From a virus (lineage: Duplodnaviria; Caudoviricetes), in IMG/VR virus record IMGVR_UViG_3300042938_001691, positions 1-45,962 of that record: a stretch of 45,962 bases of DNA; one strand, 5' to 3'. The notes below the pieces were generated by a model. It ran no database searches and was not told the origin of the DNA. It worked only from the letters and a program-made list of their open reading frames with translations. The position numbers were made by a program, and so were the translations under genes. How positions within the stretch are numbered: position 1 is the first letter of the stretch; the number at the start of each line of letters is the position of its first letter. Of this stretch, positions 1 through 45,962 are shown one piece after another.

Positions 1-509
1 ATTTGTTCGGCTTGTGTTAGTATTTCTTCAGTTACTATTTCTTCACTTACTATTTCTTCAGTTGTTATTTCTTCATTTATAATGGATATTTGTTCGTCTT
101 CAGTTAGTATTTCTTCAGTTAGTATTTCTTCAGTTAGTATTTCTTCAGTTAGTATTTCTTCAGTTACTATTTCTTCAGTTACTATTTCTTCAGTTACTAT
201 TTCTTCGCTAATCAGTTGTAAAAGTTTTTCATTTTCTTGAGAAAGTTTTTCATTTTCTTCTGAAAGTTTTCCCTCCTCTTGTGAAAGTTTTCCCTTTTGT
301 TCTGAAAGTTTTTCCTTTTCTTCTGAAAGTTTTTGATTTTCTTCTGAAAGTTTTATATTTTCTTCTACAAGTTTTTCATTTTCTTCTACAAATTTTTCTT
401 TTTTTGGTAAAAGTTTTTCATTTTCTGTCTGCAAAAGGATTACTGGATTGGCAGGTGCTATTATAATTTCTGCCGAAGATTCTGATATATATTTTGCTAA
501 ATATTCCAT
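1..509 (-). CDS. 5' part of an acidic tandem-repeat/coiled-coil protein (runs off window start; not in ORF track)
   Basis: ATG at 509, 3 nt after the tail-protein stop; open to position 1: MEYLAKYISESSAEIII...(KLSEENE)n...(EEIVT/EEILT)n. Confidence 0.8.
   Translation of the reverse strand, partial: MEYLAKYISESSAEIIIAPANPVILLQTENEKLLPKKEKFVEENEKLVEENIKLSEENQKLSEEKEKLSEQKGKLSQEEGKLSEENEKLSQENEKLLQLISEEIVTEEIVTEEIVTEEILTEEILTEEILTEEILTEDEQISIINEEITTEEIVSEEIVTEEILTQAEQ
19..207. repeat. 15-bp coding tandem repeat (EEIVT/EEILT units)
   Basis: repeated ttcttcagtta(c/g)tat units, interrupted once. Confidence 0.9.
220..425. repeat. 21-bp coding tandem repeat (heptad KLSEENE-like)
   Basis: repeated gaaagtttttcattttcttct-like units. 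Confidence 0.9.
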
Positions 510-512
510 ATT

Positions 513-11967: not shown

Positions 11968-11984
11968 TTTGTTACGGTTGTTTT

Positions 11985-16723: not shown

Positions 16724-16749
16724 GCACTTAATTTAATACCGCAACAAAA

Positions 16750-17121: not shown

Positions 17122-17133
17122 AACCGCAACACA

Positions 17134-17695: not shown

Positions 17696-17752
17696 TATAG
17701 CTTGTAAAAAAAAACTAAAAAATCACTAAATTTTAATATTAAAACCGCAACC

Positions 17753-20561: not shown

Positions 20562-21368
20562 ATGATTGGTGCAATTATAGGTGATATTGTAGGATCCCGT
20601 TTTGAATTTAATAATCATCGCTCAACTGAATTTGATCTTTTCCATAAAGATTGTTCATATACTGACGATAGTATTTGCACGGTTGCAGTTGCTGATTGGT
20701 TAATTAAAAACAAAGATCCTTTGGCTACAATAATGCGACAATGGTGTAGAAAATATCCAAACCCAAAAGGTAGTTACGGTATGAGTTTTAGATCCTGGGT
20801 TTTAGTCGATAAATATGGTCCTTATTACAGTTATGGAAATGGTTCGGCAATGCGTGTAAGTCCTGTTGCATGGGCTAGTAATACCATTGAATCAACTAAG
20901 CTAAATGCTACAAACTCGGCTTCAATAACTCATAGTCATCCAGAAGGAATCAAAGGCGCACAGGCTATTTCACAGGCCATATTTATGCTTAAAAAAGGAA
21001 TAAAGAAAGAAATAGTTTGCTCGCCTAAACAAATACAGTCATTTGGTTACAGTCTTAAACATGACTGCCAAACTCTACAAAAAATAAACATATTTGACGA
21101 AACCTGCATGACCTCTGTTCCTTATGCTTTTCAATGCCTTAAAGAAAGCACTGACTTTGAAAGTGCTATTCGTTTGGCAGTTTCAATTGGTGGCGATAGC
21201 GATACTATTGCAGCGATTACAGGATCTTTAGCGGAAGCTTGTTATGAAATACCGGAATGGATTGAAGATCAGGCAATGACTTACTTAACTGACGAAATGA
21301 AAAACGTTATTAATGAATTTAAAATGAAATTTAACTATGGAAGATTATACAATGTACAGGTTTTATAA
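20562..21368 (+). CDS. ADP-ribosylglycohydrolase (ARH/DraG family)
   Basis: GAIIGDIVGS, YTDDS, GNGSAMRVSP, THSHPEG, GGDSDTIAAITGSLAEA motifs. Confidence 0.95.
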   Translation: MIGAIIGDIVGSRFEFNNHRSTEFDLFHKDCSYTDDSICTVAVADWLIKNKDPLATIMRQWCRKYPNPKGSYGMSFRSWVLVDKYGPYYSYGNGSAMRVSPVAWASNTIESTKLNATNSASITHSHPEGIKGAQAISQAIFMLKKGIKKEIVCSPKQIQSFGYSLKHDCQTLQKINIFDETCMTSVPYAFQCLKESTDFESAIRLAVSIGGDSDTIAAITGSLAEACYEIPEWIEDQAMTYLTDEMKNVINEFKMKFNYGRLYNVQVL

Positions 21369-21678
21369 AGGCGAAAAAAAGAATCCTTTTGATAGTGAAA
21401 CTGATAGTCTTTCAGCAAAGTTTTGGTTTTACGAATATATATTCGATTCATCTTTTTTTAAAAAAGAAACTTATGAAATACATAGTTTCTTTAAAGATCA
21501 CGATATGGAAAAGCAATTTATGGCTTTACTTACAGAAAAAGATCACGACTATATATCTGAAAAAATAAAAAAGCCAGTGTTTGAACTCTGGCTTGTGTAT
21601 CTTTTTAAATTCAAACTTTATGCTGAATATGGTGGTGAGAATAAAGATAAAAAAGTGTATTATTCTACTGCCCTATAA
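21337..21678 (+). CDS. hypothetical protein, candidate immunity partner
   Basis: 113 aa, overlaps hydrolase 3' end and the convergent MuF-ART 3' end; YRFYKGEKKNPF...FWFYE. Confidence 0.7.
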   Translation: MEDYTMYRFYKGEKKNPFDSETDSLSAKFWFYEYIFDSSFFKKETYEIHSFFKDHDMEKQFMALLTEKDHDYISEKIKKPVFELWLVYLFKFKLYAEYGGENKDKKVYYSTAL

Positions 21679-24223
21679 CTTCAACATCAATGTAGTATTT
21701 GCCATCCTTAAACTCAGCTTTGTTAATTCTGAATTTGGTATTTCTTTGTAATAGAACTTCGGATTCGCTACTGAATGAAGTTTGTTTGGTAATTCCATTC
21801 CAATTAACACTTCGTACACCTTCACCAAATTGTGAGAATGGCTCCAGGTACATCATTTTAGTTCCTTTTGGACAATATACATTGTAGATTACTGGCTTGT
21901 GGCTGAATCCTTTTCCTTTTGAAACACCGCACGAACTGAACGCTTTTTCTTCTCCTACCTTCCCAATAATGGATTGAAGTTTGTCTACATCTATGCTATT
22001 AAGATCAAAGCCAAAAAGTCCTTTAAAACCATCTTTTTCAACTCCACGTTGAACCCACATATCGAAATCGTATTTTGATTTTTCAATTATAGAGGTTAAA
22101 TGTGGAACTTTTGATTGTGACAATGATACGTCTTTATTTCCGTAATAGGTAACACCTCGTAACGGCTCATTAATCGAACTATATGTATGCGTGTAATAAT
22201 ATGCAGCATCTTTTTCGGCATCAGTTGAAGCATTCCAAACCCTTCCACAATTATCACGAAGTTTGCCGTCTGCTTCTGCTGATTCTTTTGCCCATAATGC
22301 GGCATCTTTTCTTTGTTGAGAATAAGATGCTTTTGACCAGTCTGACTTAACCTTGCTGAGTTTGGCACTTTCTTTAGTGTAGAAATCAGCAATAGCATTA
22401 TTTAATTTTTCTGTTTTTGCGTTGATTATTTCTATTGAAACATTCTTACTTGCGAGTGCTTTGTTTAGATCTTCGGTTGCCTTTTTAACTGATTTGAATT
22501 CAATAGTTGAAGCATTAGTAATAACTGATTTGGCATTTTGAACAGTACTAAAAAGGGCTTCGTTTGCTAATTGATTTTTTATTTCTGCTTTTAAGAAAAC
22601 GAGATCACGTTCAAGCATTTTTCCAAACTCAATCGAAGTTGAATACTTCCCGTTTGTTTTCAACCAATCGATCTCGTATTCAATCTTGCTTATTTTACTG
22701 CCTAGTGAATATGTGTTCTCTATTTTGTTTTTGTAGAAATTATCGTATGCAGAGAATAGATTGTCAACTTCAGTTTTAGTGTAGGTTTGAAGTAATGATT
22801 CTTTGCTTAAAGGATCTGAATTTATAAGTTTTTTGACCTTTATTTCTTGAACCATTTTTTTAGACTTACCGGCTATCTGTGCATAAGTCAAACTTTCGTC
22901 TTCAATAGCAGCTTTTAGATCTTCAAGGTTTTTACTAGAAAGCCCAAGACTTTCAGCTTCAGCAATTTTCTTTTTAGCGTAAGTGATTTCAGAATTCTTT
23001 TTATCGGCCAATACTTTTGCTTTAGCTGCTTCAATTGCTTGCTCTGCTGCTAGTGCTTCGGCTTTTGCCTGTGCTAATTGTAAGGCTAATTGTTCTGATG
23101 CTAGTTGTTCTGCTGTCTTTGTAGCGACTTTTAGTCCACCAGAGATATTCCCACCCTTGAAATTATCACGAATGAAATACGGCTGTGATTTCCACCCCTT
23201 AGAACGTTCAGCATTTTCAGCAATCCAATCTTTAAATCCTTTCGGAACATCATTTATAGCATTGGCAGACTGAAATGGTGTGTATTCTGTTCCATTGATA
23301 GCTGATTTCAATTCGTTTAGCTCGTCTGTATTAAAATCTTTTGGATCTTGAAGTATTGGAATAGACTTGCACCTACATTGTGGGTGCCAGCCTACGAATT
23401 TAAAGTCCTTTGGGTATTTTCCTTTGACTACATCACAAATGTCATAAACAGGGTGATTATTTGAAAGAATTACTTCAAAACCTATTACAAAATTAAGTTG
23501 CTTCCAACGCAAATTATCCGATTCACGATAAGCCATATTTATTTCTGACCGTGTTAATCTCATTGCGTTCTTGTAGCTGCTTCTGTATTTACCTTGTCCA
23601 GGGTGAAAGGCTTTGGCATTCTTAGATAGTTGAAGCACTCCATGTTTATCGCGTACACGTCTAAAAAGCTTGTCGGGATCTACTAGATACTGCTTTAAAT
23701 CTCTTGAAAGTGCGTTGGCTGACTTCCCATCTCCAAGTGCTAAATCAATACCCATTTCCATTTGAGTTTTCATCTGTCCAGAATAGTTCCAAATCCTATC
23801 TGATAAACCCAAACCGCTAACTTTTCTTGATTGAAATGTTTTAAGCGCATCAAGGTTTCTATCTTGGAACTTTGAAAGAGTTGATTTCTTTACTTTTGAA
23901 GTTTCTAGTATTGAATCAATGAAAGCATCGTTCTTTTTACAAGCAAATAGCCATTGTTTTTCACTTCCTTGAACTATTACAGACTGCATTTTATTGGCCA
24001 ATTCAGAAACTATCGCTTCGGCTTTTGCTTTTGTTCCTGGATAGTCGCCAAAGGAAAACGGCTTCAAAGGATCAAGATTCAATTTTCCTGCCATTTTCGC
24101 ATACTCGGCTACGGCTTGATTGTATATTGCATCAATTGCCTTAACGTAACCTTCAGTTTGCTGTATATGACTGGCATCGAATCCTTGAATTGAAAAGCCT
24201 TGTTTCTTTGGTGTTTTAGCCAT
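21665..24223 (-). CDS. MuF / SPP1 gp7-like minor head protein fused to a C-terminal VIP2-like (R-S-ExE) ADP-ribosyltransferase
   Basis: LSDRIW, RLTRSEINMAY, CDVVKGKYPK...WHPQCRC (MuF); YT...INEPLRG, VQRG, FSSCG, ESEVLLQRNTKF (ART); downstream of portal. Confidence 0.92.
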   Translation of the reverse strand: MAKTPKKQGFSIQGFDASHIQQTEGYVKAIDAIYNQAVAEYAKMAGKLNLDPLKPFSFGDYPGTKAKAEAIVSELANKMQSVIVQGSEKQWLFACKKNDAFIDSILETSKVKKSTLSKFQDRNLDALKTFQSRKVSGLGLSDRIWNYSGQMKTQMEMGIDLALGDGKSANALSRDLKQYLVDPDKLFRRVRDKHGVLQLSKNAKAFHPGQGKYRSSYKNAMRLTRSEINMAYRESDNLRWKQLNFVIGFEVILSNNHPVYDICDVVKGKYPKDFKFVGWHPQCRCKSIPILQDPKDFNTDELNELKSAINGTEYTPFQSANAINDVPKGFKDWIAENAERSKGWKSQPYFIRDNFKGGNISGGLKVATKTAEQLASEQLALQLAQAKAEALAAEQAIEAAKAKVLADKKNSEITYAKKKIAEAESLGLSSKNLEDLKAAIEDESLTYAQIAGKSKKMVQEIKVKKLINSDPLSKESLLQTYTKTEVDNLFSAYDNFYKNKIENTYSLGSKISKIEYEIDWLKTNGKYSTSIEFGKMLERDLVFLKAEIKNQLANEALFSTVQNAKSVITNASTIEFKSVKKATEDLNKALASKNVSIEIINAKTEKLNNAIADFYTKESAKLSKVKSDWSKASYSQQRKDAALWAKESAEADGKLRDNCGRVWNASTDAEKDAAYYYTHTYSSINEPLRGVTYYGNKDVSLSQSKVPHLTSIIEKSKYDFDMWVQRGVEKDGFKGLFGFDLNSIDVDKLQSIIGKVGEEKAFSSCGVSKGKGFSHKPVIYNVYCPKGTKMMYLEPFSQFGEGVRSVNWNGITKQTSFSSESEVLLQRNTKFRINKAEFKDGKYYIDVEVIGQ

Positions 24224-30428: not shown

Positions 30429-30909
30429 CTTCCAATTGGCTCAAAAACTCCTGAGCTTCTTTTGCTGTTAATATCCTTGCCGGCATAAGATCTTTTCCGT
30501 CCTTGCCTGTAACCTCAGCCGATTGCCTATTTTTCCAATTCTGTGAATCCTTATTCGTTTGGAAATGAATAATTGCACCAAGATTTGGCGAGATCTGTTT
30601 TTTCGTAACAGTCTGTTCTTTTATCTTCGGCCTTCCTGCTCCATCGTCAATTGTAACAGTTTTCTTTTCCTCGAACTCGTAGCCTTTTATCAACTTTGTC
30701 AAGGATCTATCGCACTCCATAAGATTCTTTTCAATGAACTCGTCTTTCGCCTTTTGTATAGCGACTGCAAATTCTGCAACTTCTGCTTGCCAATTATAGT
30801 AGCAACGTTCTGATATTCCGACGTTTACGCATATTTCAGCTATCGTATAACTGTCCGACTTAATGAGGTTACAAATATTACTTACTGTCTTTTTGTTATA
30901 CTTCGGCAT
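30418..30909 (-). CDS. terS: terminase small subunit
   Basis: N-terminal HTH (TIAEICVNVGISERCYYNW), C-terminal EVTGKDG, overlaps terL start. Confidence 0.85.
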   Translation of the reverse strand: MPKYNKKTVSNICNLIKSDSYTIAEICVNVGISERCYYNWQAEVAEFAVAIQKAKDEFIEKNLMECDRSLTKLIKGYEFEEKKTVTIDDGAGRPKIKEQTVTKKQISPNLGAIIHFQTNKDSQNWKNRQSAEVTGKDGKDLMPARILTAKEAQEFLSQLEDEC

Positions 30910-31789
30910 CTTGTTTGGTTTTTCTTAATACTTTCTTGTATTTTTCATCAACAATTTGTGGCACTGTATTTTTCCAAGTAACCGAATGATGCAGCCTTCT
31001 GTGTGTAGATCCCATCATTTTAATCTTTACACTTGACGGGTGAAACATAACCGAATAGAACGATTTTACGTAAGTTCCGTTGTCCAGGTAAATATCAGTC
31101 ATACCGCCCTTGTTACTTTGTGTTTGCTTCTGAACTATTGAAACATTTGGAATAGTCAAGAAAAGATCTCCTGTACTTGCTTTTCGTGTGTATGTGTTCA
31201 CGTCCTCGTTTATTCTGCCTACGAATTGAAAAGGTCTTTCAGTACTACAAATAAAAGTATTCATGCACTTTCGTTTCAGTTTTAATCCTTTTGCGAAAGA
31301 TCCCTGCGAACCACCAATAAAGTCACCACCTTGTGAAAGTGCTATGCTTTTTGCTGGAATGCTTATGTAGTAATCGAGCATGATGTCAAAAATGGCATCA
31401 AGGTTTTTTATCTGTTTGTATTTGTAGTCAAGATTGTTGTCGAAGCGATATTGAAATTCGGTGTAATCATCATCTAGTTGAATGAAGTATTTTATGCCGA
31501 GATCCTTTGCTATTTGAAAGCAGGCATTTCTTGCGTAAATGATTGCCCTTCTGTCGTTGAAGTTGTCAGCATTGTCGAAGGTTTTTGCAATTGCAGCTTT
31601 GTCGAACATAACTACTTGATCCCCGAAGTTTTTATAGTACTCGTCTGCTGTTTTGTCCTCGTTGTCTATTACAAAAATAATCCGTCCTGTATATCCAGAT
31701 CTTTTCAACCTGTCGTATGTTACAACAGTGTTTGGCCTTCCATGCGTAAGGATAAATGCCACGAAATCATTATTCTTCATCATCTTCAT
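30896..31789 (-). CDS. GT-A fold glycosyltransferase (GREB1/TAGT-like phage family)
   Basis: FILTHGRP, ARNACF, FIQLDDDY (DxD), GRINEDV motifs. Confidence 0.8.
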   Translation of the reverse strand: MKMMKNNDFVAFILTHGRPNTVVTYDRLKRSGYTGRIIFVIDNEDKTADEYYKNFGDQVVMFDKAAIAKTFDNADNFNDRRAIIYARNACFQIAKDLGIKYFIQLDDDYTEFQYRFDNNLDYKYKQIKNLDAIFDIMLDYYISIPAKSIALSQGGDFIGGSQGSFAKGLKLKRKCMNTFICSTERPFQFVGRINEDVNTYTRKASTGDLFLTIPNVSIVQKQTQSNKGGMTDIYLDNGTYVKSFYSVMFHPSSVKIKMMGSTHRRLHHSVTWKNTVPQIVDEKYKKVLRKTKQDAEV

Positions 31790-32576
31790 CTTCGTTTTTA
31801 TATTGTTCGCCCATTTCCTGTGAAAGTTTTACGTAGCCCTGTGCAATAGCTTTATCAAAATCGATAATTACTAGCGCTGAATCTTCCATTAACTCTTGAA
31901 CAATTGCGTCTGAATGAGCGTAGAAATCAGCTATTTTTTCGTAATTGAAAACAAGGTGTCTGTTGGCGGCATACAGTAAAAAGTCTTTGTCTTTCTTGCT
32001 TATATCTGCGGCCATTATTTTTTTGATCAACTCCGAAGATTTTTCTTGATCCAACAATTCAACAGTTTCGGGCTTTTCGCCTTTTACTTCGTATGTCGGT
32101 GCTTTTATTTTTGAAGTGTAAGGATCTCCGTCTTGACCTGCTCCTGTTCCATCATCTTCGTCCTCACTTTCAAATTCAGCAACACCCCAATCTTCGGGTT
32201 TTATATTCCATTGGTCAGATAGTTCCTGTACGGCTTCAACATCCCATTCAAGATTGACATGAGCAATTGCATTGTCTGCCAAAGCGAGTTCCCTTCCTAT
32301 TTTAGAATCAAGATCTACATCGGTACGCTTTACGACTACTAACTGATCTCCGGTAGTTTCTACTACAATACAATCTTCAAGCCCTAGACTTGCTGCTGTT
32401 TCAGCTACACCGTTACCACCGATGATACGATTGTTTTTATCCACTAAAATAGAACGCCCAAGCCCTAGAGTGGAAATGGACTTTTCAAGCAAGTGCATAC
32501 CGTACTGACTATGTTTGTTCATGTTTTTATCATCGGGAATCAGTGACGATATTTTCTTTTCTTGTGATTTGCTCAT
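31770..32576 (-). CDS. ParB N-terminal-like domain protein with acidic linker and C-terminal domain of unknown function
   Basis: LIPDDKNMNKH...SISTLGLGRSILVDKNNRIIGGNG...LALADN. Confidence 0.75.
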   Translation of the reverse strand: MSKSQEKKISSLIPDDKNMNKHSQYGMHLLEKSISTLGLGRSILVDKNNRIIGGNGVAETAASLGLEDCIVVETTGDQLVVVKRTDVDLDSKIGRELALADNAIAHVNLEWDVEAVQELSDQWNIKPEDWGVAEFESEDEDDGTGAGQDGDPYTSKIKAPTYEVKGEKPETVELLDQEKSSELIKKIMAADISKKDKDFLLYAANRHLVFNYEKIADFYAHSDAIVQELMEDSALVIIDFDKAIAQGYVKLSQEMGEQYKNEDEDDEE

Positions 32577-32836: not shown

Positions 32837-32855
32837 AATGTTGCGATTATTTGGT

Positions 32856-34640: not shown

Positions 34641-34659
34641 TTGTTGCGGTTTATTGAGA

Positions 34660-35550: not shown

Positions 35551-35579
35551 AATGTTGCGGTTTTATGTGGTTATTTGTT

Positions 35580-39150: not shown

Positions 39151-39885
39151 CTAAAATGGAGTTTTTAGAAAAGGAATCTGCATTCCTGAATCTGCAATAT
39201 GTATTGTCTTTCCTGTAGCCTTATACAAATCGTTTTTAAACTCGTCTGCATTGCTGTTTCCGTTAGATAAGTGAATCAGTATAATATTATTCACTTTGCT
39301 TAAATCGTTTGCCAAAAGGGCTTCTTTACAAGTTTCGTAAGACATGTGACTTTGAAGTGTTCTGTCTTGAAGCATCTTCGGGATCCTACCGGCTTCAATG
39401 TTTCTTTTCAAAAGTTCCGTACTGTAATTTGCTTCAATCAGAATGTTATTGAGATTGGCAAACCTGTTAGGTAAAAAATATGTATCTGTAGCAAAAAGAA
39501 CGTTCCCTGTAACTGCGTGATTTATAAAAAAACCTATCGGCTCGGCTGCATCGTGTTTCACTTTGAAAGGCACTACTGTAAAATTTCCAATCTTTATTTT
39601 TTCGAAAATTACACTTGGCTGAAAACGGCTTTTTAAATTTAATTTCGAAAGAGTTCCTGCTGACATATAAACAGGAATCCTAGCTTCAAGAAAGTCATTT
39701 ATGTACTTTGCATGATCCCCATGTTCGTGACTTACTAATGCCCCAACCACCTTACTGATATTGAAATCCAAAGCATATTTCACGTCTTTAAAAGAAACCC
39801 CGCACTCGATAACGAGTGCTTCGGTTTCATTTTGAATGATGTAGCAATTTCCATTACTTGAACTTCCAAGGATTGATAAAATCAT
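39151..39885 (-). CDS. metallo-beta-lactamase-fold hydrolase, probable exonuclease partner of RecT (start revised to 39885)
   Basis: GSSSNGNCY, SHEHGDH, VKHDA, ATDT, EANY, HMS, IHLS motifs. Confidence 0.9.
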   Translation of the reverse strand: MILSILGSSSNGNCYIIQNETEALVIECGVSFKDVKYALDFNISKVVGALVSHEHGDHAKYINDFLEARIPVYMSAGTLSKLNLKSRFQPSVIFEKIKIGNFTVVPFKVKHDAAEPIGFFINHAVTGNVLFATDTYFLPNRFANLNNILIEANYSTELLKRNIEAGRIPKMLQDRTLQSHMSYETCKEALLANDLSKVNNIILIHLSNGNSNADEFKNDLYKATGKTIHIADSGMQIPFLKTPF

Positions 39886-40962: not shown

Positions 40963-40991
40963 TGTTGCGGATTGTTTAAAAAAGTGAATAA

Positions 40992-42968: not shown

Positions 42969-42998
42969 AATGTTGCGGTTAAAAGTTTTTGTATTAAA

Positions 42999-43181: not shown

Positions 43182-43207
43182 TATGTTGCGGTTAATGTTA
43201 TTTTTAT

Positions 43208-43285: not shown

Positions 43286-43471
43286 TTACGCAGTTTTGCG
43301 TTCTTCGGTTGTTAGGTAGTTAGCCCTGTTGCATGTCTTTGAAACTGTTTCAATCTGGATCCAGGTTTGGTTTCATTCTTGAAGTATTCAGCCAATTCCT
43401 TTACCGAGTACATTTCAATCCTATGTCCAAGCTTCTTTGCTTTAAGATCCTCAAATTTTAAATGTCGCCAT
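43286..43471 (-). pseudogene. probable remnant of a tyrosine integrase 5' end, truncated by deletions
   Basis: ATG 43471 gives MATFKI*; the overlapping +1 frame gives KFEDLKAKKLGHRIEMYSVKELAEYFKNETKPGS, resembling Bacteroidota phage integrase N-termini as I recall them; located just downstream of attP. Confidence 0.55.
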
Positions 43472-43564: not shown

Positions 43565-43603
43565 AAAACACCCCGTAAGTATCAATGTCTTACGGGGTGT
43601 TTT
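43565..43603 (-). terminator. strong bidirectional hairpin terminator after the tRNA fragment
   Basis: aaaacaccccgtaag-N9-cttacggggtgtttt. Confidence 0.85.
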
Positions 43604-43606
43604 TGT

Positions 43607-43651
43607 TGTAGCGATAGCGAGAATTGAACTCGCGACCTCATGATTATGAAT
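43607..43651 (-). other. attP core: 3' half of a tRNA with CAT anticodon (Met-like)
   Basis: minus strand ATTCATAATCATGAGGTCGCGAG-TTCAATT-CTCGCTATCGCTACA contains the anticodon loop, T-arm and acceptor 3' strand; no D-arm or acceptor 5' strand upstream. Confidence 0.85.
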
Positions 43652-43742
43652 TATACGGTCTGAACCGTGTATCGGGTTCTAGTTTAATAGATTACAAGAA
43701 CATTATTTTTAGACGGTACTACTATGGTACCACTTTGAACAC

Positions 43743-43823
43743 TTTGCACGAAATCCACTGACCGAAATCAGTGGAAATCTGGTTGCTTTTTCAGCCGCAA
43801 CTCCGTCCAAGCAACCGTGCAAA
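43743..43823 (-). ncRNA. candidate ~70-80 nt structured antisense small RNA
   Basis: three nested/adjacent stems, a UUCG tetraloop with U-G closing pair only on minus strand, and a 20-nt loop containing GUUGCGG; TATATTTG at 43820-43827 (minus). Confidence 0.6.
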
Positions 43824-43831
43824 TATAAGTC

Positions 43832-44302
43832 TTATTTTTTATATATGTTCGTGTAATAGTATTCAGAGATCTGAACCGATTCAGTCCAGGTCAATTTTCC
43901 ATCAGAAAGACTTTGCAGAATAAGAGTTGACAAGCCATGATAGAATACATTTTTGGCTTCATCGCTAGATAGGTTTATTGCCGATAAAACTGATTTCAAC
44001 TGTTCGTTAGGATCTTGTATTTGTGAAATCGTATTGGCAAAGTTTAGTTGTATAATTACTTTCGGCAAAATTAATTTCATTTTTTCCCGTAGTATTTTAA
44101 TAGCCAAATCGTCTGCTTTGCCTGGAATTATCGAAGCAATTACTGTTTCAATAATATCACCGGCAAAAGATTCGTTCACCGTTTTAAGAACGTTTACTGC
44201 ACTAATGGCAATAGGTGCAAATTGTTTTACTTCGTCAGTTGCTTTTTTCCAAAGTCCTGAAAGAAATCCCAATATTTGGGCAAGAAAAATTTTAAGTTTC
44301 AT
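43832..44302 (-). CDS. hypothetical protein in the lysis cassette
   Basis: 156 aa amphipathic helical, follows endolysin. Confidence 0.7.
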   Translation of the reverse strand: MKLKIFLAQILGFLSGLWKKATDEVKQFAPIAISAVNVLKTVNESFAGDIIETVIASIIPGKADDLAIKILREKMKLILPKVIIQLNFANTISQIQDPNEQLKSVLSAINLSSDEAKNVFYHGLSTLILQSLSDGKLTWTESVQISEYYYTNIYKK

Positions 44303-45426: not shown

Positions 45427-45962
45427 TCATAAGTCATCTATAATAAGCTGAAGTAAATTAATTTCATCTCTGATAGCCTGTCTTTCGATTATTAATTCAT
45501 TAATGTCATAGGGCAATGTAACACCCAAAAGATTACTTTCATAGCATTTAATGATCTTATAATCCGAAGATTCAAGATTTTTTTTCAAAACTTCGATCTC
45601 ATTATCATAATATTTTTTATCAACTTCAATATTCCAATTTTGATAAACTTTACCTTCAAGCAAAGAATAAGATAATTCAATAGTTTGACCATTTATTATA
45701 ACAGGCATTTCGCTTTCTACAAATTCAACGAACCCTTCATTTATAATTTTAGAGTATTGTTGTACTTGATTTTCAAGATTTATTACAATATTAGACTGAA
45801 TTTTAATTTCTTCATTTATACTTTCTATTTCTTCAGTTATACTTTCTATTTCTTCAGTTATACTTGATATTTTTTCAGTTATATTTTCTATTTCTTCATT
45901 TATACTTTCTATTTCTTTGGTTATACTTTCTATTTCTTCATTTATAATTGATATTTTTTCAG
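45427..45962 (-). CDS. 3' part of the acidic repeat protein; C-terminus resembles small tail-fibre-associated proteins
   Basis: the frame of the 93-aa track ORF stays open to the window end through (EEIESIT/N)n repeats; LESSDYKIIKCYE...ERQAIRDEIN C-terminus. Confidence 0.8.
   Translation of the reverse strand, partial: EKISIINEEIESITKEIESINEEIENITEKISSITEEIESITEEIESINEEIKIQSNIVINLENQVQQYSKIINEGFVEFVESEMPVIINGQTIELSYSLLEGKVYQNWNIEVDKKYYDNEIEVLKKNLESSDYKIIKCYESNLLGVTLPYDINELIIERQAIRDEINLLQLIIDDL
45806..45962. repeat. 21-bp coding tandem repeat (EEIESIT/N)
   Basis: repeated tatactttctatttcttca(g/t)t units. Confidence 0.9.

Follow-up and report, generated by a model that had tools for sequence, protein, structure and literature searches.

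The window, the whole stretch of 45,962 nucleotides that we analysed, is by gene content a near-complete Bacteroidota siphophage. Among named phages, Porphyromonas phage005 is the nearest (69% capsid identity); its tRNA-Ser-integrating group is named Ludisviridae in PMC10367356, and we would tentatively place the window near that group. The ends of the window (1-512 and 45427-45962) hold the same kind of low-complexity, repeat-rich coding sequence and share no terminal repeat, and the record looks like a circle opened inside a repetitive gene.

On the minus strand, the lysis module is followed by an RNA element, an arm-like site, the 3' half of a tRNA-Met gene, a terminator and the remnant of an integrase gene (Table 1). 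Since one relative (G001) is a provirus inside a full tRNA-Met gene with the same core, the site in the window is attP. The arm-like site, with similar sequence and spacing in G001, G002 and L085, is probably bound by the integrase as an arm site. The integrase remnant is 78% identical to residues 64-100 of the G007 integrase (E 3e-12). Together with a promoter-leader unit that resembles the accessory-operon leader of G013, it stands (43471-42999, minus strand) where G007 has an integrase/CI/Cro module of ~5.7 kb. This module was lost separately in G011 and G014.

Table 1. Coordinates in the window of the RNA locus, its neighbours and the leader motifs
Feature	Position	Strand	Basis or remark
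Last lysis-module gene	43832..44302	-	Stop 5 nt ahead of promoter; holin and NlpC/P60-like genes upstream
-7 promoter element, Bacteroidota TAnnTTTG type	43820..43827	-	Predicted transcription start 43815
Predicted 66-nt small RNA, two hairpins	43750..43815	-	Fold; 3' end uncertain
Hairpin 1	43781..43816	-	Outer stem 43816-43809 with 43788-43781; 3x3 internal loop
Hairpin 1 inner stem, 3 bp	43805-43803 with 43794-43792	-	Fold and comparison
Seed loop, 8 nt, AGUUGCGG	43795..43802	-	Complementary to leader motif
Hairpin 2, UUCG-capped, terminator-like position	43754..43775	-	Comparison
Integrase arm-like site	43715..43733	-	65 nt from att core; separate from RNA
attP core, 3' half of tRNA-Met gene	43607..43650	-	Same core in G001
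Hairpin terminator beyond att core	43568..43600	-	Sequence; equivalent hairpin in relatives
Integrase remnant	43312..43471	-	Left by deletions; relatives' CI/Cro module missing here
Motif before first early gene (60 aa, start 43181)	43185..43191	-	Motif and ORF position
Motif before SbcC-like ATPase gene	42972..42978	-	Motif and ORF position
Motif before RecT gene	40964..40970	-	Motif and ORF position
Motif before anti-restriction-like gene (PHROG 2059, E 2.6e-11)	35554..35560	-	Motif and ORF position
Motif before PcfK-like gene	34643..34649	-	Motif and ORF position
Motif before first gene of divergent accessory operon	16739..16745	+	Motif and ORF position
Motif before second accessory gene	17124..17130	+	Motif and ORF position
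Motif before conserved 29-aa ORF (start 17753)	17745..17751	+	Same ORF and motif in G006, G007, G008
One-mismatch motif before gene after tail-tube-position gene	11971..11977	-	CCGCAAC or CCGCAAT at corresponding gene in G010, G011, G012

The initial annotation, made from the sequence of the window, had proposed a small RNA on the minus strand at 43827-43743, and all of the elements that it quoted are present there. A stable structure at this place was borne out: the 101-nt element folds at -37 kcal/mol (z = -4.98), and none of 200 shuffles folds as well. The predicted 66-nt RNA favours the same strand, with folding energies of -24.6 for the minus strand (z -3.43) and -17.7 for the plus strand. 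Several details had to be revised. The loop, described as 20 nt long, has 8 nt and sits on a 3-bp inner stem. The Bacteroidota -7 element runs from T-12 to G-5 (PMC6847099), and with the element at -12 to -5 the predicted start falls at 43815, so that the TTTGCAC arm of the suggested outer stem is promoter DNA upstream of the start. The ~80-nt three-way junction that this stem was to close cannot form, and we read the RNA as two hairpins. Nor did the suggested extension of pairing by G-U wobble hold, as the flanks of the loop vary freely among homologues.

The loop sequence GUUGCGG is complementary to CCGCAAC, which occurs 11 times in the window against 2.0 expected, a number that none of 100 shuffles reaches. 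One copy is the complement of the loop itself, eight of the other ten lie 1-4 nt before an ATG (binomial P ~1e-17), and two are antisense inside genes. Copies in leaders are always in the sense orientation. We thus recover the eight starts that had been reported as a minimum. The genes concerned are dispersed, as the initial annotation had claimed, and include recombination, replication, anti-restriction-like and accessory genes, often the first genes of their operons and 0.6-27 kb from the RNA gene; the 29-aa ORF is the third motif-bearing gene of the divergent accessory operon. Further one-mismatch leader variants lie at 32846, 32588, 36032 and 17514, five such leaders in all. One late gene also bears the motif, which counts against the reading that we give below. 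The leaders are A-rich and have no structure to open, and the pairing in phages with this motif (group A, below) amounts to only 7 bp (-12.8 kcal/mol).

Initiation in Bacteroidota does not use Shine-Dalgarno pairing and depends on unstructured A-rich sequence, with structure near the start codon lowering it (PMC6847099). In five Bacteroidales genomes (20.4 Mb), we count 49 copies of the group A leader pattern, compared with 53 for the reversed control and with eight in the 46 kb of the window. For the 10-mer of the second group of phages (group B), the counts in five carrier genomes (11.6 Mb) are 57 versus 15 for the reversed control, about four times as many, and in one carrier genome 7 of 17 copies cluster on one contig. 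With a frequency near background in hosts, the leader pattern is a tag of phage genes rather than a general signal for initiation in the host, apart from the mild enrichment of the group B form.

Relatives were gathered by their capsid proteins, without use of the RNA, and 80 of 245 were kept. A first RNA model (R1) was used to search 49 records; it matched 18, of which 14 were genuine, and missed five that were later found by pattern. For comparison at full length we took 29 of these 49 records and added G001 and G002. The RNA is present in 21 of the resulting 31 records (8 of group A and 13 of group B), always after the late genes and before att. Among the ten records without it, three (G012, G025 and G043) end at the last lysis gene, and six (G006, G013, G015, G016, G028 and G029) have no lysis-gene match and probably lack that end of the phage; G047 has an intact end from which the RNA is absent. 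Downstream of the small RNA, G014 has a complete tRNA gene (L294, 1729-1801), where the other group A phages have the att half only.

Beyond this set, a seed-based scan of GTDB gave at least 12 promoter-linked group B copies, these being among the first 120 matches, and the titles of group B copies among those matches include Alistipes, Prevotella, Muribaculaceae, Rikenellaceae and Bacteroides. The GTDB group B RNAs and the final lists of both groups were chosen with patterns that contain the seed. Pattern scans returned mostly noise, with 2 of 45, 3 of 11, 3 of 34, 3 of 4 and 11 of 83 matches genuine, and an att-based scan of GTDB returned no genuine copies. A second model (R2), applied to 151 Bacteroidales genomes with only 29 candidates scored per genome, gave three matches, all without the seed; as it missed the known G079 copy and scored so few candidates, no frequency can be taken from it. 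The leader motif is absent from 34 viral loci of RecT relatives, and three of 23 records of RecT relatives gave weak model matches, again without the seed; these are mostly other phages that share RecT. Two such unrelated RecT-bearing phages (L032 and L007) have repeated pre-start motifs of their own, CACAC in three leaders and GAGCA in four, possibly parallel systems. A search of named phages at the DNA level, with the 301-nt region as query, gave two short chance matches only.

Comparison of 10 distinct group A sequences supports both hairpins, with 93% of cells paired and two-sided changes at 9 of 12 pairs. The inner helix of hairpin 1 is paired in 100% of cells, with two-sided changes at all three pairs, and the corresponding figures for hairpin 2 are 91% and six of nine. 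None of 500 shuffles has as high a pairing score, and slid controls reach at most 56%. On these changing stems, the seed loop AGUUGCGG is invariant in all ten sequences, and its bases are predicted to be unpaired with probabilities of 0.78-0.92 each. A -7 element precedes all 10 group A and all 18 group B RNAs listed, the element being part of the pattern used in that search. Hairpin 2 is followed by clear U-runs in most relatives; the run is weak in the window, where no terminator-like site was called at the 3' end of the RNA, so the RNA may extend into attP. Antisense ORFs over the RNA gene differ among relatives. The locus therefore has the features of a small RNA gene: its own -7 element, a terminator-type hairpin, a length within 50-250 nt and no conserved ORF. 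For one group B locus, 23 sequencing runs are listed, one of them recorded as RNA. In the assembled contigs of four of these runs, the RNA run has no coverage of the small RNA gene and one probable-DNA run has pieces of it.

The two groups differ in both the seed and the leaders, in keeping with the earlier suggestion that these might co-vary. In group A phages, CCGCAAC stands 0-6 nt before ATG. In group B, the gut clade, the loop of the RNA varies and none of 18 RNAs retains GUUGCGG, while a 5' segment, CAUUGUUGCGA, partly in a bulge, is fixed in 16 of the 18 distinct RNAs. Group B leaders read WCGCAACAATG, the complement of CAUUGUUGCGA across the AUG. After removal of near-duplicates, CGCAAC has a C before it in 30 of the 33 leaders from six group A phages versus 1 of 32 from nine group B phages, and the register CGCAAC-A-ATG is found in 5 of 33 versus 27 of 32. 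In G046, where the seed ends in GCGAG, two leaders carry the matching CTCGCAAC. The RNAs of G001 and G002, which sit between the groups on the capsid tree, hold both the 5' GUUGCG and the loop. The Porphyromonas lineage (phage005b and G047), which branches beside group B on this tree, has neither RNA nor leaders, a co-loss. A conserved, unpaired seed is thus complementary to several translation start regions, and the co-variation of seed and target rests on one switch and one co-loss. Since each happened just once on the capsid tree, the leaders are not independent observations, and the Fisher values computed from them overstate the independence. Finer comparisons are less clear: one changed seed base in G019 is unmatched by its two leaders, only one leader of G032 was scored, and cognate pairing in group B (11.0 nt) is barely better than non-cognate pairing (10.6 nt).

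Taking the comparisons together, we regard the element as a real, conserved phage small RNA gene with a predicted transcript. The comparative evidence that links it to a dispersed set of the phage's own genes, as a regulon, is unusually good. The promoter and two-hairpin unit beside attP would likely yield a trans-acting RNA of ~66 nt, whose 8-nt loop could pair with CCGCAAC before at least eight phage start codons and so probably block translation by masking the initiation region. The seed in use appears to have relocated to the 5' bulge in the gut clade, and pairing at the bulge would disrupt the stem and extend over the AUG. No RNA would be present as the DNA enters the cell; it would accumulate later from a host-type promoter, so that the recombination, replication, anti-restriction-like and accessory genes might be expressed in a burst and then shut down. 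In a lysogen, it could serve as a second lock under CI. Such a multi-target translational repressor RNA, accumulating after entry and also silencing prophage genes, is our best reading, to which we assign a probability of about 0.7, and a single RNA likely switches off the whole tagged gene set.

The initial annotation had put the RNA in the place of CI, in a genome in which none was visible. Its dispersed-regulon RNA has stood up in being conserved, promoter-linked and structured, with a seed that co-varies with the start motif; the substitution for CI has not. In five relatives (G001, G007, G009, G010 and G015), genes for an integrase and a CI-like protein lie between attP and the early operon. 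The RNA is thus no replacement for CI in this family; the window has lost both genes. The HTH matches of the CI-like genes lie under the Pfam cut-off. In G007, TGCAAC lies 10-16 nt before the starts of two genes downstream of the CI-like gene (L315, 17576-18083), and the counterpart HTH gene of group B sometimes carries a full tag (G021 and G045). The window, G011 and G014 have no integrase/CI-like module and have kept the RNA and the leaders; this retention in three lineages without lysogeny genes suggests use of the RNA in the lytic cycle, with the caveat that the deletions cannot be dated.

These losses bear on the strongest alternative, that the same pairing mainly serves the immunity of lysogens, the RNA of a prophage blocking the early genes of incoming relatives, including CI-insensitive ones. 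The position of the RNA gene at the prophage edge with its own promoter would suit this role, and the GUUGCG core is common to phages whose CI-like proteins have diverged to 31-64% identity, which would give broad cross-protection. We nevertheless think it improbable as the main function, since the three lineages without integrase or CI keep the RNA, and an immunity determinant would be expected to diversify where this core is nearly fixed.

Clearly less probable is that CGCAAC is a protein binding site, in RNA or DNA, and that the RNA locus is a decoy read from the other strand or a set of operator copies. After hairpin 2, several group A phages do share a short GCAAA tract that looks like a -7 element of the opposite strand. 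However, the full TAnnTTTG element, the G-U pairs and the U-runs all indicate the antisense strand, the group B match crosses the AUG in a fixed register, and the constant sense orientation of the leader copies also speaks against such a site. The annotation's own alternative, that the inverted repeats are integrase arm sites only, can be set aside, since the RNA gene persists ahead of different att regions and tRNA targets and beside integrases unmatched by that of G001.

We consider it quite unlikely that the RNA pairs with the leaders and activates or stabilizes them, for instance as a marker of start codons where the host makes no use of Shine-Dalgarno pairing. The targets are often first genes of operons and group A pairing leaves the AUG free, as this would require, but the A-rich leaders contain no structure that could be opened, the pairing in group B spans the AUG, and structure near the start lowers initiation in Bacteroidota (PMC6847099). 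Least probable of all is that the hairpins are a lysis-operon terminator and att architecture, the leader motif a translation signal of the lineage and their complementarity a coincidence: the element does lie between the last late gene, which it directly follows, and att, and the independent evolutionary events are few, but the promoter is conserved, the loop is invariant on changing stems, seed and leaders switched in a matched way and were lost together, and the RNA persists beside unrelated integrases.

Returning to translational repression by a shared seed, a wider form of this reading, which we hold only tentatively and at somewhat less than even odds, is that Bacteroidota phages have an RNA-operator regulon, in which start-codon tags would place entry, anti-defence and replication genes under one RNA as master off-switch, the tags would follow when the seed relocates, and CI-less derivatives would be left under the RNA alone. 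Hosts that ignore Shine-Dalgarno sequences would leave the positions ahead of the start codon free for a short tag.

The C4 RNAs of P1 and P7 and the CI RNA of P4 are three-stem cloverleaves cut from a precursor by RNase P, and GibS, like MasB, is a trans-acting sRNA of Bacteroides. We rejected membership of the C4/P4 CI class for the RNA described here, as it has no Rfam covariance match and has two hairpins in place of the cloverleaf; nor does it share an operon with its targets, upstream of icd/ant-like genes, its neighbours being the lysis module and attP and its targets 0.6-27 kb away. The likeness is that of a small phage RNA restraining lytic functions beside a protein repressor: without C4, the icd-ant operon of P1 is not fully repressed (PMC8198154). 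C4 acts within its own immI operon, whereas the RNA of the window would be a free-standing gene by attP with its complement at 3-8 dispersed start codons. Base pairing is also the means by which sar of P22, OOP and aQ of lambda, STnc6030 of BTP1 and 24B_1 of Phi24B repress phage genes; some of these phage RNAs act at translation initiation and affect lysogeny or superinfection (PMC12197685). By the account in that source, each controls one or a few phage genes, mostly as cis-antisense RNAs, and none is described as using a motif shared by many start codons, unlike the RNA proposed here.

In its multi-target style, its predicted short pairing near the 5' region of mRNAs and its Bacteroidota host, the RNA resembles MasB, a trans-acting Bacteroides sRNA whose short imperfect pairing is reported with proof by compensatory mutations (PMC10994844). 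MasB is chromosomal with host targets, in that description, while the RNA of the window is phage-borne, has phage genes as its predicted targets and matches a motif that is at background in host chromosomes. The proposed burst and shut-off also follow the logic of the establishment regulons of conjugative plasmids (the p576 repressor; EGeRS of pLS20), in which anti-defence genes at dispersed sites have a regulatory sequence in common and show a burst of expression that lasts until a regulator accumulates (PMC8708921). The known regulator reported there is a DNA-binding protein acting on promoters, the mechanism of EGeRS1 being unknown, whereas we propose an RNA acting on translation starts.

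Rfam covariance models gave no match in the window at the gathering score, and at the loci of nine relatives only tRNAs scored above threshold (anti-hemB, for example, reached 33 of 49.5 bits). In a literature search that covered few subscription papers, we found no description of the RNA or of such a regulon; the supplements of PMC10690425, on viral candidate structured RNAs, lay outside its scope and may list the RNA without a function. A 2026 preprint (10.64898/2026.09.22.753630) deals with other RNAs.

Phage antisense RNAs known so far mostly control one neighbouring gene. A phage RNA with a dispersed regulon would, if true, add a post-transcriptional master layer to the control of lysis and lysogeny, and would do so in a family of Bacteroidota phages that is common in the gut and the environment. 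The tag would mark uncharacterised small genes as likely entry or anti-defence functions and, again if the reading is right, a 66-nt repressor with a 7-12 nt tag could be a compact tool for Bacteroidota genetics.

Some further features of these phages deserve mention. The leader of the SbcC-like gene of phage005b looks like a decayed group B tag, and the accessory region of this phage has two other promoter-linked hairpin units (L514, 26980-27070 and 30163-30070), one of them also in G047. In the window, a head-morphogenesis protein is fused to an ADP-ribosyltransferase domain (21665-24223, minus strand; Bxa-like PHROG), of which G001 and G002 match the first 380 residues only, and an ADP-ribosylglycohydrolase gene with a small partner faces the fusion gene (20562-21678, plus strand). 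After RecT lies a metallo-beta-lactamase-fold gene (39151-39885, minus strand) that scores 16.8 of 50 bits with Pfam Apyc1, far under the cut-off; the phage005b gene at the same position is annotated as Apyc1-like. A ParB-like gene and a TET-associated glycosyltransferase gene directly ahead of the terminase (30896-32576, minus strand), present also in phage005b, suggest DNA modification. Finally, G002 has a reverse transcriptase gene with a tail-fibre-like neighbour directly ahead of its lysis genes (L050, 8938-11644), by eye resembling a diversity-generating retroelement.
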